Below are positions 7,933 to 64,000 of a stretch of DNA of 64,000 bases, piece after piece. The stretch comes from an uncultured Candidatus Saccharibacteria bacterium. Its GTDB lineage: Bacteria; Patescibacteriota; Minisyncoccia; Phycocordibacterales; UBA2100. The DNA lies in NCBI GenBank assembly GCA_964471165.1, contig CAYYEX010000006.1:19779-83778 (forward strand). Reading direction: 5' to 3'. Below the pieces are notes generated by a model. That model was not told the origin of the DNA. It was given only the letters and a program-made list of their open reading frames with translations, and ran no database searches. How positions within the stretch are numbered: the stretch's first letter is position 1; each line of letters opens with the position of its first letter. The position numbers and the translations under genes were made by a program.

Positions 7933-8754
7933 ATGTTCATCGTTGCAGACATAGGTGGGACAAAAATACGCATCGCAAAGAGCGATGATTTGAAAACATT
8001 TGGGGAACCAATTATCCAGAATACGCCGCAGGATTATCCCTCTGGCATCGAACTCTTTAAATCAACGGTGCAAGACTTAGTGGGCATTGGCACAAAACTC
8101 GATGGAGTAGCTATCGGAATCGCCGGCCCGCTCTCGCCCGACAAGCGCAGTACGTATCTCACGCCGCACTTGCAATGGGGCGGTCGCACACTCGCCGACG
8201 ATATGGAGTCTGCGCTATCCGCAAAAGTGCATCTTGAAAACGACGTTGCACTTGTGGGACTTGGCGAGGCCGTTGTTGGGCCGGGAGCGTCGGCATCAAT
8301 AGTGGCCTACATTACCGTTTCAACCGGGGTAAATGGGGTGCGCATCGTGGACCAAAAGATTGACCGCTCAGCAGAAGGATTCGAAATCGGCGGGCAGTTT
8401 ATGTCGGTGGAGGAGCCGATTCTCACACTCGAAGATATGGTTTCTGGAACCGCCGTTGAAAAGACGTTTGGCATGAAGCCAAGAGATATAGGCAAAGACA
8501 ATCCGGTGTGGGAGGAGCTTGCGCAAATTCTTGCCTACGGTGTGCATAACACAATCGTGCATTGGTCGCCAAACCGCGTCATCCTAGGAGGTTCCATGTT
8601 TAACGAAGTTGGTATTTCGGTCGCGAGTGTGGAGAAGCACGTAAAAGAAGTAATGAAAAAGTTTCCAATAGTTCCGGAAATTGTTCACTCAGGCCTCGGC
8701 GACGTGGGCGGACTCCATGGGGGGCTGGAGTTGCTGAGACAATCTCATTCATAA
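7933..8754 (+). CDS. ROK/BadF-type sugar kinase (putative glucokinase)
   Basis: It has an N-terminal ADIGGTKIR ATPase motif of the actin-fold sugar kinases and is the last gene of the glucan cluster. There is no ROK Zn-Cys motif, so the family is uncertain. Confidence 0.6.
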   Translation: MFIVADIGGTKIRIAKSDDLKTFGEPIIQNTPQDYPSGIELFKSTVQDLVGIGTKLDGVAIGIAGPLSPDKRSTYLTPHLQWGGRTLADDMESALSAKVHLENDVALVGLGEAVVGPGASASIVAYITVSTGVNGVRIVDQKIDRSAEGFEIGGQFMSVEEPILTLEDMVSGTAVEKTFGMKPRDIGKDNPVWEELAQILAYGVHNTIVHWSPNRVILGGSMFNEVGISVASVEKHVKEVMKKFPIVPEIVHSGLGDVGGLHGGLELLRQSHS

Positions 8755-8864
8755 ACCCGCATACATTTACGGTACGCGTAATTTTCTGCTGAAAATTCGC
8801 TCGGTCACGCTGTCCGGGGTCGTCTGACGACGCGCTTGCGAAGCCCGTAAATATATACGGGTTT
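8753..8864. mobile_element. MITE-like / structured repeat element A (112 bp, imperfect 20-bp terminal inverted repeats)
   Basis: The ends aaacccgcatacatttacgg and ccgtaaatatatacgggttt are inverse-complementary with 2 mismatches. It shares the subterminal cores CGGTACGCGT..TTTTCTG.TGAAAAT and CGCGCTTGCGAAGCCCG.AAATA with element B at 19731. Confidence 0.55.
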
Positions 8865-8873
8865 ATTCCTCGC

Positions 8874-9494
8874 TTAGCTTACAGGTCCGTCTTGGTTGTC
8901 TTTGTCGCGAAGATGTTTGTAATACTCCCAAAATACGGGGATGAGTGTCACGAAGATGATGCCGAGCACGATGTAGGTTATGTAGTCTTGAATTGCAGGG
9001 AAGCGTTCACCCAGCAAGTAGCCCGCTGTGGTCACGCCCGTCGCCCACGCAAAAGCGCCGGCCAGGTTGTAAATCATAAATGTGCGGTAATTCATGCTTG
9101 CAATACCGGCAACGATTGGAGCAAACGAACGCACGATAGGAATGAATCGTGCCAGAAAGATGGTCTTTGGTCCGTGTTTTTCGTAGTAATGCTGCGTTTG
9201 GCGCAGGTGGTCTTGGTGGAAAAAGCGCGAGTCGGGGCGAGTGAAGAGTTTGATGCCGATTTTGTTCCCGAACCAGTAGCCCGCGTTGTCGCCCAGAATT
9301 GCTGCAACTGTAACGGTGGGAATGAGAATCCAGGGGTTGAAGAGGCCTTTGGATGCCAGCAGTCCTGCAGTAAACAGGAGCGAGGCGCCCGGGAGCCAGA
9401 ACCCCACGATAGTGCCACTTTCGGCAAATATAATGAGGAATAGACCCGGGTAACCGATAACGGTAATAAAGGGCAGAATCGCCAAGGTAAGCAT
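8874..9494 (-). CDS. DedA / SNARE-associated family membrane protein
   Basis: It is a multi-transmembrane protein with the DedA-type G..GYWFG motif region. Confidence 0.7.
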   Translation of the reverse strand: MLTLAILPFITVIGYPGLFLIIFAESGTIVGFWLPGASLLFTAGLLASKGLFNPWILIPTVTVAAILGDNAGYWFGNKIGIKLFTRPDSRFFHQDHLRQTQHYYEKHGPKTIFLARFIPIVRSFAPIVAGIASMNYRTFMIYNLAGAFAWATGVTTAGYLLGERFPAIQDYITYIVLGIIFVTLIPVFWEYYKHLRDKDNQDGPVS

Positions 9495-15814: not shown

Positions 15815-15920
15815 CGGCGCATGATACTGCGTATTCACTTTTGCACCACGTCTCCAGTAATGTATCCAATTGGATGAGTTACTGGAGTGAGATTGCCACA
15901 CGCTGTCGAAATATTTTGCT

Positions 15921-19125: not shown

Positions 19126-19650
19126 TTATTTGAGAGGCAGTGGCCCGAGGTAATCAGACTTTCCGATAGCCACGCCGTTCTTGCGGATGATAGCGTATGC
19201 AGTCGCTACGTGGAAGTAGAAGTTCGGAATAAGATATTCGGTCGCGTACTCGTATCCCGAGAGCGACTTGTCGCCCCAGTAGGGAAGCGAAACACGCACC
19301 TCCTCCTTATCGTTCACATTTTCCGGTGATACCGCCTTGAGAAGTTCAATTGTTTTCTCGATTCGCTCCTGCAACTGCACGAATGTGGTCTCGGTGTCCT
19401 CAAACGAGGGAACTTCGGTGCCCGTGATGCGCTTGATGGAATTCTTTGCGTTGTCGGTCGCTATCTGCACTTGGCGCGCAAGAGGGAGTTGGTCGAACAC
19501 GAGTCGGTCGTTGAGCAGCCACTCCTCATAGGTGCGATTGGCCGTTTTGCGTGACTCGGCGTGGACTGCAGCTTTGCCAAGAACACCACTGAGCGCCTCG
19601 AGTGATCTAATCATTGGCGGATAAATTACTGAGTAGAAAGAAGTTTGCAT
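19126..19650 (-). CDS. DUF1993-family protein
   Basis: Length and helical composition fit DUF1993. The start was placed at the internal MQTS or MIRS because the upstream in-frame part looks non-coding. Confidence 0.5.
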   Translation of the reverse strand: MQTSFYSVIYPPMIRSLEALSGVLGKAAVHAESRKTANRTYEEWLLNDRLVFDQLPLARQVQIATDNAKNSIKRITGTEVPSFEDTETTFVQLQERIEKTIELLKAVSPENVNDKEEVRVSLPYWGDKSLSGYEYATEYLIPNFYFHVATAYAIIRKNGVAIGKSDYLGPLPLK

Positions 19651-19730
19651 ACAAGTGAGCTTTACTAAGTAAACTAGTAGTCGAGATAGTGTACAACACT
19701 CGTCTCGATTTTCGAAGTGGATAACGCTCC

Positions 19731-19904
19731 GCGAGACTGAGTATTTTCCGGTACGCGTCGTTTTCTGGTGAAAATCCCTTTTTGCTTCGCAAAACAGCTC
19801 CTCGGCCTCGAAAGACAAAGAGTGTCTTTGTCTTTACTCGTCCTGCGTCGCTGCCTCATCTCGCGCCATCGCGCTTGCGAAGCCCGGAAAATACTCAGTC
19901 TCGC
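19731..19904. mobile_element. MITE-like element B (174 bp, perfect 21-bp terminal inverted repeats)
   Basis: gcgagactgagtattttccgg (19731-19751) is the exact reverse complement of ccggaaaatactcagtctcgc (19884-19904). It shares internal cores with element A. A third partial copy, ccgaaaatact, lies at 19925. Confidence 0.6.
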
Positions 19905-19954
19905 TCCGCTGGGGTACGAAATGCGCCGAAAATACTTTGCCTCGCGGAGTCAAA

Positions 19955-20848
19955 TTATTTCAACGTTTTGATGAACTCAGCGAAGCCGTCCTTCGTGTCG
20001 GGGTGTTTGAGGCCGAATTCCACAACAGTTTTCAGGTAGTCGAGTTTGTTGCCACAGTCGTAGTATTTACCGTTTTGGATTTCGAGTGCATAAATGTCGT
20101 GATTTTTTTCAAGGAGAATGTTGAGCGCGTCCACATACACGAGTTCTCGGCCAGGGTGAGCGCCATCGAGCAGTTTCATTGCCTGTTCTATTGCTTCGAA
20201 GATGACTGGTTCGTACAAGTATCCGGAAACGAGTGCGTAGTCTGAATTAATGACGCCCGGTCCCGGTTTTTCGACAACATGTTCAATGCGCATGAGCCCG
20301 GGGGCTTTTTCGGTGCCAGTGGCAAAACCATATCGTTTGTAGTCCTCTGGTGCGGAGGTGCGCACGCTCGAGAGAATCGCGCTGCCTCCGTGTTCGTTGT
20401 ATGCACTGATGAGTTGTTGAGAGCGCGAGGGGGACGCTTCAAAAAAGTCGTCGCCGAATAGCACGAGAAATGGTTCGTCGCCCACGAAGTCTTTTGCGTT
20501 CCATATCGGGGTTGCGTTGCCGAGCGGTCCCTTCTGGCGAATGTAGTGAAAGTTGGCCAAATTTGCGATTCCGCGGATTTGCTCGAGCTCCTTTGTTTTG
20601 CCCGCTTCTTCGAGGCGCTTCTCAAGTTCAAATGAGTTGTCGAAATGGTCTTCGATGGAGCGCTTCTGTGCTCCCGTCACGATCAGGATGTCTTCAATAC
20701 CGGCCGATACTGCGTCTTCAACGACATACTGAATAACAGGCTTATCAACGATAGGCATCATCTCTTTTGGGGATGCCTTGGTTGCGGGGAGGAACCGGGT
20801 GCCGTATCCAGCGGCGGGGATGATTGCCTTTCGGATCTTTTTTGTCAT
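19955..20848 (-). CDS. galU: UTP--glucose-1-phosphate uridylyltransferase
   Basis: The N-terminus KAIIPAAGYGTRFLPATKASPKEMMPIVDKP is the GalU signature. The start was chosen at MTKK. Confidence 0.85.
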   Translation of the reverse strand: MTKKIRKAIIPAAGYGTRFLPATKASPKEMMPIVDKPVIQYVVEDAVSAGIEDILIVTGAQKRSIEDHFDNSFELEKRLEEAGKTKELEQIRGIANLANFHYIRQKGPLGNATPIWNAKDFVGDEPFLVLFGDDFFEASPSRSQQLISAYNEHGGSAILSSVRTSAPEDYKRYGFATGTEKAPGLMRIEHVVEKPGPGVINSDYALVSGYLYEPVIFEAIEQAMKLLDGAHPGRELVYVDALNILLEKNHDIYALEIQNGKYYDCGNKLDYLKTVVEFGLKHPDTKDGFAEFIKTLK

Positions 20849-20964
20849 TGACGAGCATTGTAACAGACGGTGTATCGGCCGAGGCCGTATACGCAGTATA
20901 TTGACAAAAGTGCGTAGGATGTTGTAAAGTCTTGGTCGGTATCCAACGACGCGAGGAGCGCGCA

Positions 20965-21594
20965 ATGCACCAAAATGTGATTCTGCGCGCCGAGGGAGAA
21001 CTCTTCGAGGCGCTGTTTAGCTTTTCTAGTAAGCCAACGTTTGACCACGCATTCAACTGCTTCACCAACGAAAAGGTGCAGCGTTGCACAATCACGCTGG
21101 CCGAGCTCAGCCGACAGTACGCACTCGAAGTAGACCGTGAGCGTTCGCGAACAAAGGAGAAGCCCATCAACTACCGGCATTTCTACGTGGGCGGCGTTGG
21201 TATCGGTTTGGTTCCGGCGAAGCGCTCGAAACGCAGGTACGACTGGTGGGCGTTCAGCGCGTTCAACACAAAGTCGTCGCAGCGTGCAGAGAAGTACTGC
21301 GCAGAAATGCGCATCATGCGAGCCGCACGAGCAGTGAGTTGCGCGTGCATCGGATCGATTGCCGTTATTGGGGAGCGCCAATCCGACGGTCGCAGCGGCG
21401 TGATTCGGCCTATCGGGCTTGATCCGTGCGAGGCGTGCCGGGATTGTATGCGCAAGCCCGAAAATCGGATGATGTTCGCCGCAAAGACGCGCATTCTCAC
21501 GGGGCAGCCGCTCGCACAGCACCACAGCATCGAGACAATTCCTCAAATGATGGCCGCACACAAGGAGGTGTGGCCCAAACTGAAGCCGGCGTAA
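20965..21594 (+). CDS. cytidine/deoxycytidylate-deaminase-like zinc-binding protein
   Basis: It has CAE...(PCEAC) motifs (CAEMRIMRAA, DPCEACRDC) compatible with the CDA fold. The start is assumed at MHQN. Confidence 0.45.
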   Translation: MHQNVILRAEGELFEALFSFSSKPTFDHAFNCFTNEKVQRCTITLAELSRQYALEVDRERSRTKEKPINYRHFYVGGVGIGLVPAKRSKRRYDWWAFSAFNTKSSQRAEKYCAEMRIMRAARAVSCACIGSIAVIGERQSDGRSGVIRPIGLDPCEACRDCMRKPENRMMFAAKTRILTGQPLAQHHSIETIPQMMAAHKEVWPKLKPA

Positions 21595-43131: not shown

Positions 43132-43416
43132 ACGATGCCAGTCGTTTTTTCTATGAGCTCGTCAGGTTTCGGGAAATCTTTCTGCATGAAGTGTGCGCAG
43201 TATAGTCCACATCCTAACTTAGTTGTTTCTTCGACGGCTCCAGATTGGGGAAAATTGGCTCAGATATCATGAAAGGTGTCGTTTCTCCTCTAGTTGATTA
43301 TCCATGTATTTCTTCACCAACCGAGGTTTTTGCCTCGGTTCGTCCAACGTTGCTCCGCTCGAGAATCCATTCACTGCGTGTTATGGATTCCCGCGTTCGC
43401 CTCGAAGAAAAAGAAA

Positions 43417-43445
43417 ACGCCCTTCGCAGGGCGTCCTCTTTTTAC
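43417..43445. terminator. bidirectional intrinsic terminator
   Basis: The hairpin acgcccttcgcagggcgt is flanked by an A-run upstream and a T-run downstream. Confidence 0.55.
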
Positions 43446-43450
43446 TTCTC

Positions 43451-43580
43451 GGCTCCGTCGGTAGGATTCGGTCACGAGTTGCTAAGTATTTTGGGCTGCT
43501 GCGCGCCAAAATACTAAGCACTCTCGACCCCGGCTCGCGCCGATGCTCGGCGCTCCGCCTTTCGAATCCTACCGACGGAG
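43451..43580. repeat. nested long palindrome containing a partial copy of the tRNA-Asn 3' region
   Basis: An 18-bp outer stem (ctccgtcggtaggattcg / cgaatcctaccgacggag) encloses a 15-bp inner stem (tgctaagtattttgg / ccaaaatactaagca). The left arm matches the tRNA-Asn 3' end at 19 of 21 positions. Confidence 0.6.
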
Positions 43581-43630
43581 TGAATCAGTAAGGCCCCAGT
43601 CCTCGCGGACCAGGGCCTAACTGCTTCATG

Positions 43631-43702
43631 CTCCGCGGGTAGGATTCGAACCTACGACCAATCGATTAACAGTCGACCGCTCTACCGCTGAGCTACCGCG
43701 GA
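43631..43702 (-). tRNA. tRNA-Asn (anticodon GTT), no encoded CCA
   Basis: I folded the cloverleaf by hand. The acceptor is UCCGCGG/CCGCGGA, positions 8-9 are U8 A9, the D-arm is GCUC-AGCGGUA-GAGC, the anticodon loop is CU-GUU-AA, the T-arm is GUAGG-UUCGAAU-CCUAC and the discriminator is G73. Confidence 0.9.
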
Positions 43703-62107: not shown

Positions 62108-62228
62108 TCTGCGCAGATGGAAAAAAGTAACCACCCGCGTTCACCACGAGAGCAGTTGAAGGCACTACTCCAGTAACTCATCCAATTGGATGAGTTACTG
62201 GAGCAATGCGCGGCGTGCGGCCAAATGT

Positions 62229-63846: not shown

Positions 63847-64000
63847 ACGGGGAGTATACCCCGTGAGATAAAAAAGCAGATTTCGTCCTCTACTCGGAGT
63901 GAATATCTCATGGGGTATACCCCGTGGGATAAAAAAACGGATTTTTTTGCTCAATCGGGCGAAAATATCTCTCGGGGTATACTATTCACAATATGTTCGC
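63847..64000. repeat. tandem repeats of about 63 bp, each starting with the palindrome GGGGTATACCCC (2.4 or more copies, cut by the window edge)
   Basis: The units are 63847-63910, 63911-63973 and 63974 onward. Each shares a conserved approximately 30-nt 5' part and aatatctc at the 3' end, with a variable core of about 18 nt. Confidence 0.6.

Follow-up and report, generated by a model that had tools for sequence, protein, structure and literature searches.

The ERIC and BIME elements of enterobacteria are imperfect palindromes of ~100–130 nt that lie in transcribed intergenic regions and at 3′ ends and occur at low to moderate copy number, and the Correia elements of Neisseria—short, non-coding, hairpin-forming, gene-adjacent MITEs—give mRNA hairpins that are cut by RNase III. 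In a stretch of 64,000 nt from an uncultured Candidatus Saccharibacteria bacterium (hereafter, the window), we analyzed three copies, A, B and C, of an intergenic element that resembles ERIC and BIME in (i) internal insertions at fixed points, as seen in its long and short forms; (ii) presence or absence among relatives; and (iii) a conservation that suggests constraint at the RNA level. However, ERIC and REP share their whole sequence, including the stem, whereas the A/B/C family shares only its inner junction and leaves a 17–23 bp stem free; furthermore, the two groups are dissimilar in sequence and come from different phyla, and no RAYT-type gene is present among the scanned ORFs. Cleavage by RNase III, as in the Correia elements, is also the fate that we propose below for the closing helix (P1), but the family-specific conserved terminal inverted repeats (TIRs) and the target-site duplications (TA for Correia) that characterize MITEs are both absent here.

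Integron attC sites are likewise conserved in structure more than in sequence, being imperfect palindromes (57–141 nt) of variable central length that directly follow ORFs and of which one strand matters; they conserve the outer R″/R′ boxes (RYYYAAC / GTTRRRY) and vary inside, whereas the A/B/C family does the opposite. An attC identity was rejected because B (GCGAGAC.../...GTCTCGC) and C do not have AAC/GTT ends and the copies have syntenic core neighbors with no integrase nearby. With the Rfam "motif" families, the purine aptamer and the type I hammerhead, the elements have in common a variable closing helix, a conserved junction, covarying hairpins and a core of 55–60 nt, but they are found at 3′ ends rather than in the 5′ UTRs of orphan RNA motifs, their P1 is unusually long, and the hammerhead core (CUGANGA / GAAA / UH) is absent from their junctions. 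The hammerhead-like CUGNUGA in P2 was discounted because it is part of a hairpin loop, GAAA/UH is missing from the junctions and Rfam gives no match. We also dismissed a tRNA-like, Y-RNA, 5S or SRP mimic, for which there were short motif resemblances only and no model match, and, on context and motifs, group II domain V.

None of the 4227 models of Rfam 15 identified a family for A or B even at E ≤ 10, where the two copies gave only chance matches of 19 and 10 bits; the gathering threshold was reached in the window by two tRNAs only. Nor did we find a description of this family in the literature searched on RNA motifs, MITEs and hairpin repeats of the CPR/Patescibacteria. Orphan structured intergenic elements are a kind already known; the combination of a free clamp helix and a near-invariant junction is unusual.

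Copies in the window and their gene neighborhoods

Copy A, the short form, lies on the minus strand at 8753–8864, directly 3′ of a ROK-family sugar kinase gene (7933–8754, plus strand, stop 8752–8754), and fills the spacer between this gene and a convergent DedA/VTT gene (minus strand, stop 8874–8876). Its P1 arms are at 8753–8772 and 8845–8864, its P2 hairpin at 8776–8800 (plus strand reading GCG-T-AATTTTC-TGCT-GAAAATT-CGC) and its conserved strand CGCGCTTGCGAAGCCCG at 8831–8847, and it scores 80 bits with the covariance model (E about 1e-17). Copy B, the long form, is found on the minus strand at 19731–19904, between the gene for a GalU-like nucleotidyltransferase (19955–20965, minus strand, stop 19955) and a DUF1993 gene (19126 to about 19614/19650, minus strand), and scores 52–56 bits. 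Its P1 arms (19731–19751 / 19884–19904) pair perfectly over 21 bp, its P2 region extends over about 19755–19779 and its right core over 19870–19886, and its extra domain is enclosed by the helix GCUUCGCAA/UUGCGAAGC.

These two copies had been presented in a preliminary description as MITE-like elements with unlike TIRs and shared internal cores, A after a sugar kinase and B after galU, and this anatomy was confirmed: the perfect 21-bp TIRs reported for B are the P1 arms given above, those reported for A with two mismatches correspond to arms of 20–22 nt (8751–8772 / 8845–8866), and the middles between the cores, estimated at about 35 and about 100 nt, are 34 nt long in A and 94 nt in B. The sharing of the cores would not be expected by chance. 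The left core, CGGTACGCGTnnTTTTCTGnTGAAAAT, has two exact occurrences in the window, at 8770 and 19749, and was not matched in any of 100 shuffles with up to three mismatches, while the right core, CGCGCTTGCGAAGCCCG, is found exactly at 8831 and 19870. When A and B were folded, as had been proposed as a check, both strands of each proved far more stable than the shuffles (z = −4.7 to −8.9).

Upstream of B in the RNA sense, a fragment on the minus strand (19905–19949) holds a third copy of the B arm with an 86% match (19928–19949) as well as GGGGTACG, which is similar to the junction motif. The fragment gives the impression of having been left behind by an older copy or by a tandem duplication that was only partial. 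As a separate observation, in relatives (L019 7154–10525, L021 6893–10489; loci of other assemblies are given here by such L numbers) the GalU-like gene and DUF1993 are separated by genes for a response regulator and a histidine kinase; the window (19126–20965) is without this pair, and B occupies the junction.

The divergent third copy, C (43442–43591, minus strand), was detected with model R2, filters off, at 33 bits (E about 1e-5). Its P1 comprises 18 bp (43453–43470 / 43563–43580) and five further pairs; its P2 is longer, with GCAGCAGC retained in the loop; and its junction strands, GCGCGAG..GUCGAG and ACUCGUGACC, are still recognizable. Compared with shuffles, C folds with z = −9.2. On the same strand, a sigma-70-like promoter (TTGAAA-16-TATAAT, 43741–43714, matching 11 of 12 consensus positions) and a tRNA-Asn gene (43630–43702) precede it, and a canonical intrinsic terminator, GACGCCCUGCGAAGGGCGUUUUCUUUUUCUU (43405–43436), lies just 3′ of it. 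Because the tRNA-Asn/C unit is closed by its own canonical terminator, C need not be one; flanked by promoter and tRNA-Asn on one side and by this terminator on the other, C is very probably transcribed, the tRNA-Asn promoter being the likely source, and is probably not itself the terminator.

The 3′ end of the tRNA-Asn gene, UUCGAAUCCUACCCGCGGAG (43631–43650), is duplicated twice downstream, at 43561–43580 and 43453–43472, once inverted and once direct. It is this pair of duplicates that forms the clamp helix of C, the 3′ arm matching at 17 of 19 positions and the 5′ arm being its complement. When we searched for orthologues of the C locus, the S41 peptidase neighborhood proved not to be syntenic in relatives. 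The region of the S41 peptidase gene in relatives contains large-serine-recombinase islands (L022 3924–5633, L023 7831–9087), and the duplications at C and tRNA-Asn may for that reason be an old integration (att) scar.

Beyond A, B and C, the covariance model, run with filters off, found no further copies in the 64-kb window. Read in the RNA sense, A is 3′ of dedA, B of the GalU-like gene, C of tRNA-Asn and, in another assembly, L005a of dapB. The possibility of a retron non-coding RNA was rejected, as none of the genes flanking A, B and C (ROK, DedA, GalU-like, DUF1993 and hypotheticals, C lying beside tRNA-Asn) has an RT domain.

Two other kinds of palindromic sequence were noted in the window. 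The near-perfect palindrome CTCCAGTAA..ATCCAATTGGATGAGTTACTGGAG, roughly 36–40 bp, occurs twice and resembles an operator that both sites have in common and that a dimeric regulator would bind. One copy (15852–15887) separates the divergent ATP-grasp and AAA_28 genes; the other (62162–62209) overlaps the start of mreB or lies immediately before it. At the right edge (63851–63983), an 18–20 nt unit that includes the palindrome GGGGTATACCCC is present three times (as GGAGTATACCCCGTGAGATA and in inverse form), and an A-run follows every copy; these may be repeated operator or promoter elements.

Distribution across the Patescibacteria

The preliminary description had envisaged a small family of non-autonomous elements and a search of related genomes for further copies. 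The family was borne out, both by copy C and by the 15 instances that the covariance model identified in at least nine Patescibacteria assemblies. Two models were built, R1 from five orthologues and R2 from 14 copies, and both recover every known copy. They also revealed (i) a second copy in L005, in which G-C pairs have replaced those of the entire P2 stem but loop and junction are retained; and (ii) a copy at another locus of the L011 genome (L019 1630–1721).

An exact scan for GGTACGCGTNNTTTTCTGNTGAAAA in one genome per species (185,579 species genomes) returned only four loci, all of them true. Three of these loci come from Patescibacteria MAGs, one each from Saccharibacteria, Paceibacterota and Paceibacteria, and the fourth, from another MAG, is an rpsH–secY region in which S5 is directly followed by L15, apparently without L30. 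Each exact match has the same cores, enclosed by a long helix that is unrelated in sequence and whose innermost pairs alternate between CGG/CCG and GGG/CCC, and two of the four lie directly 3′ of a ROK gene, as does A. Judged by its ROK homologues, the window belongs to a Paceibacteria/Kaiserbacteria-like clade.

Of the assemblies compared at this orthologous site, the ROK–DedA junction, seven (the window, L004, L006, L011, L015, L016 and L017) carry the element and two (L013/L014 and L018), in which the genes are 0–1 nt apart, do not. Orthologues of B were found upstream of DUF1993, as a short copy in L021 and a truncated long copy in L020; at the DUF1993 locus of L019, the element is absent. 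That close relatives lack the element at sites orthologous to occupied ones (L013, L018 and DUF1993 in L019) indicates that it is dispensable. Two copies per assembly were detected in four cases (L011/L019, L015/L021, L016/L020 and L005), and where paralogues occur in the same genome (A/B/C; L015/L021), they have plainly diverged from one another.

The ROK kinases of L013 and L004 have a common C-terminal extension of ~17 residues ending in TSVKIS(V/I)A, which the ROK kinase of the window is without. In L013 (10760–10900), the extended ROK ORF ends 1 nt from the DedA gene and there is no element, whereas L004 has the element despite the same extension.

The arrangement at this junction brings up terminators, which the preliminary description had suggested alongside regulators as a role for structured RNAs. 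Were the elements elaborate, possibly bidirectional terminators or insulators for packed convergent genes, with the helix doing the work and the core incidental, the exact filling of the ROK–DedA spacer by A and its six orthologues, with no other terminator there, would be in keeping, as would the U-rich tails that follow the helix in the ROK direction in L006, L015, L016 and L017 and the location of every copy at gene ends. Yet the relatives in which both genes abut manage with no hairpin at all, a consensus terminator scan was negative at A, B and C, the strand favored by wobble pairs (see below) has no consistent U-tract, C is followed by a terminator of its own, and the conservation of the junction strands across phyla would be left unexplained. 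We consider this role decidedly improbable.

Several other intergenic sequences attracted our attention in the relatives. What looks like a second family of long-stem elements (L016 11609–11767, L017 9818–9978, L021 9672–9800) has variable outer stems around a conserved CUGCGUCGUUGCGGAGCC ... GUACGGCUC ... CUCCGCGCCUCGCAUC; it occupies the DedA–SHMT spacer in two relatives and adjoins the B-type copy of L021, does not occur in the window, and contains the 12-mer CTGCGTCGYTGC, which is also present in the extra domain of long-form copies. Between the SHMT and dUTPase genes of L016 (13020–13240) lies a long hairpin with a stem of about 20 bp (ACCCGCACACTAATTTTGCCGA.../...TCGGCAAATTTAGTGTGCGGGC), which contains the family-core-like GCGCTTGCGA and is not detected by R1 or R2. 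Upstream of a SWIB-domain gene, ~170 nt are almost identical between L019 (1459–1629) and L021 (1943–2150) (ATGCGCACGTTTCGACGCGCCAATTATATACC...) while synonymous sites are saturated; this stretch may be a conserved leader or regulatory RNA.

Fold, covariation and constraint

The common fold consists of a closing helix, P1 (17–23 bp), of free sequence around a three-way junction with two hairpins, P3 and P2, the latter a 10-bp hairpin with a single bulged base, and with conserved joining strands. On the minus strand, the 5′ part of the short form comprises P1 (17–23 bp, ending GGG/CCC), GCUUCGCAAG and P3 (4–8 bp, loop GNCG), and the 3′ part comprises CGAGACCGAG, P2 (GCG and 7 bp, loop ANNA, a bulged A, CGC), GUA and P1′. 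The long form, represented by B, L004 and, truncated, L020, has in addition a conserved hairpin domain and UUGCGAAGC, which pairs with GCUUCGCAA. In most copies P1 amounts to about two helical turns, although its sequence is free. An additional pairing of GCUUCGCAAG with CGAGACC or with the foot of P2 is unsupported by the variants in L015, L017 and L005.

In the alignment of 14 copies, which was fitted to the model and includes related sequences, 96% of the cells are paired and 29 of the 32 pairs show double-sided changes, a level of pairing and covariation reached by none of 500 shuffles; in controls with slid partners, 34–49% were paired. The covariation score was 0.745, as compared with 0.18 for shuffles and no more than 0.13 for the slid controls. 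RNAalifold, applied to an independent MAFFT alignment of ten trimmed copies, recovered the same P1, P3 and bulged P2, with compensatory changes in 13 of 18 pairs. Examples are the replacement of GCG/CGC by GGG/CCC in L015, L017 and L021, and of UUUU/AAAA by GGCC/GGCC in the second L005 copy, where loop and junction are kept. Moreover, L015 and L017 no longer have the palindrome TACGCGTA but TACGGGTA, and the far side of P2 has changed to match, which argues that the fold is constrained and not a site in duplex DNA.

Among orthologues at the ROK locus, the 57-nt core is 68–93% identical, whereas the fourfold-degenerate third positions of the ROK and DedA/VTT genes are saturated (23–44% identity) and the outer P1 arms have drifted to 10–67% identity with pairing retained. 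A core so conserved next to saturated fourfold sites, within arms that drift but stay paired, points to a selected structured element and not to a decaying transposon; judged by these identities, the core at the ROK locus is under purifying selection.

The helices also favor one strand. In the minus-strand sense, 17 of the wobbles are G·U and four are A·C (two-sided binomial p about 0.007, calculated by hand), the A·C pairs being G·U on the opposite strand, and the minus-strand fold is the more stable in five of six copies. Opposite-strand wobble pairs are found in L004 and in P2 of B, and the copy at L019 1630–1721 is antisense to both adjacent genes. Compensatory changes in excess of controls, strand asymmetry and conservation above the neutral rate, three generic features of a structured RNA, are apparent in this family. 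The early suggestion of structured RNAs acting as terminators or regulators fits in its first part with the covariation, the G·U asymmetry and the position of C in a tRNA unit; for plain terminators, the consensus scan gave no support.

A fold of this type also recalls the small three-way-junction aptamers, and B, L020 and L021 lie 80–120 nt upstream of DUF1993, and L005a upstream of rpsH, where a riboswitch-like aptamer could act in cis on the downstream gene. However, at ROK–DedA, where conservation is greatest, no gene lies downstream in the same direction for such an aptamer to control, the neighboring genes are functionally unrelated, a P1 of 17–23 bp leaves no room for an expression platform, and Rfam offers no match. 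We regard an aptamer function as highly improbable.

Mobility and possible functions

Several features of the family are those of a selfish non-autonomous repeat of the REP/BIME, ERIC or, broadly, MITE type, whose conserved folded core a recombinase or transposase acting in trans would recognize, either as a hairpin or in the form of single-stranded DNA, and which would land in or beside the hairpins at gene ends, so that the "TIRs" would be local sequence and not part of the element. There are several copies per genome (three in 64 kb here, two each in four other assemblies), but copy number is low, and near-identical paralogues were not seen. Presence and absence differ at orthologous sites, the same locus can hold the long form in one genome and the short form in another, and copies occur at synteny breaks, B at the site of the two-component system of relatives and the L019 copy at a breakpoint, with homology to L021 missing from one of its flanks; yet the fixed orthologous copies are under strong core constraint and do not decay. 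The core is nearly identical in Paceibacteria and Saccharibacteria. Phage, plasmid and viral-contig sequences gave no match: the exact-core pattern found none in viral contigs, two further patterns yielded three chance matches there (rejected by the model) and none, and blastn of B against phage and plasmid collections was negative. A relaxed-stem pattern run against JGI metagenome contigs matched four times, always by chance, inside high-GC membrane-protein genes.

The machinery that such a repeat would depend on was sought with Pfam in 20 ORFs of the window, including those flanking A, B and C, and among the neighbors of L003 and L005, with no transposase, integrase or reverse transcriptase found; a precomputed Pfam assignment placed an IS256-type transposase in L013, a genome locus without the element. 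There is also no common terminal sequence. In A, B, C and 11 other copies, each arm matches its own partner only and has no sequence relationship with those of the rest, and the target-site duplications whose detection had been proposed were not consistently found: the best flanking direct repeats of 14 copies are 0–4 nt long and vary in length and offset, GGA recurring in B/L021 and L011 only. Classical MITEs were accordingly rejected, since TIRs are unshared, target-site duplications of fixed length are lacking and there is no neutral decay; the original suggestion of non-autonomous elements was in this respect not supported. REP/REPIN sequences, which have a conserved palindromic unit of 20–40 nt in tens to hundreds of copies along with a RAYT gene, were rejected as well, because the conserved unit is here a branched core of 55–130 nt and not the stem, and the window has just three copies.

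Some features of the arms also count toward the selfish reading. Those of C are copied from the tRNA 3′ end, B has a spare copy of its arm, and the L003 copy is nested within an outer inverted repeat of 25 bp, which suggests that local sequence supplies the arms or receives them by insertion. Long and short forms at one locus, together with a P2 variant that is identical in L020 and L021, point to exchange between copies. Maintenance of palindromes at the DNA level is suggested to contribute to the complementarity of the arms, which template switching within palindromes can keep up. Taking both sides together, we think a selfish repeat unlikely.

We put it at slightly better than even that A, B and C represent an undescribed structured-RNA family of the Patescibacteria, forming the minus-strand tail of upstream units, in which both the clamp helix and the junction are functional; transcription, strand and RNA ends are deduced from the DNA sequence. 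According to this proposal, the RNA would form the final part of the transcription unit that lies upstream (dedA, galU or tRNA-Asn), with a two-turn clamp helix of any sequence, P1 (17–23 bp), closing a three-way junction whose strands (GGCUUCGCAAG, CGAGACCGAG and ACGCGUA), together with the bulged P2 hairpin, would be under sequence-specific selection. P1 would be long enough to serve as a substrate for RNase III or as a block to 3′ exonucleases, and its cleavage, or the block, might release or protect a compact, stable junction RNA, whose conserved core would be bound by a partner that is conserved as well and is probably a protein. Additional copies would arise rarely, through local duplication or recombination, with long and short forms exchanged between copies; the elements are not MITEs that move by cut-and-paste.

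More tentatively, and with the balance of probability against it, the family may be a hitherto unrecognized, Patescibacteria-specific class of trans-acting RNAs, in which a clamped junction RNA would be cut from 3′ UTRs and tRNA co-transcripts to act as RNA subunit or decoy for a conserved protein, or as a new small ribozyme. If so, the near-invariance of the junction between Paceibacteria and Saccharibacteria would reflect an essential partner in these reduced genomes.

The Patescibacteria (CPR) account for a large share of bacterial diversity; their genomes are tiny, non-coding DNA is very scarce in them, and to our knowledge almost no non-coding RNAs of their own have been described. Since the junction is kept nearly letter for letter across Paceibacteria and Saccharibacteria while the stem drifts and synonymous sites are saturated, the constraint on the element is real, and it thus offers an entry point to the RNA biology, or the genome-repeat biology, of these uncultivated organisms. 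For annotation, the family can be modeled (R2), probably marks transcript ends and should not be masked as a transposon.
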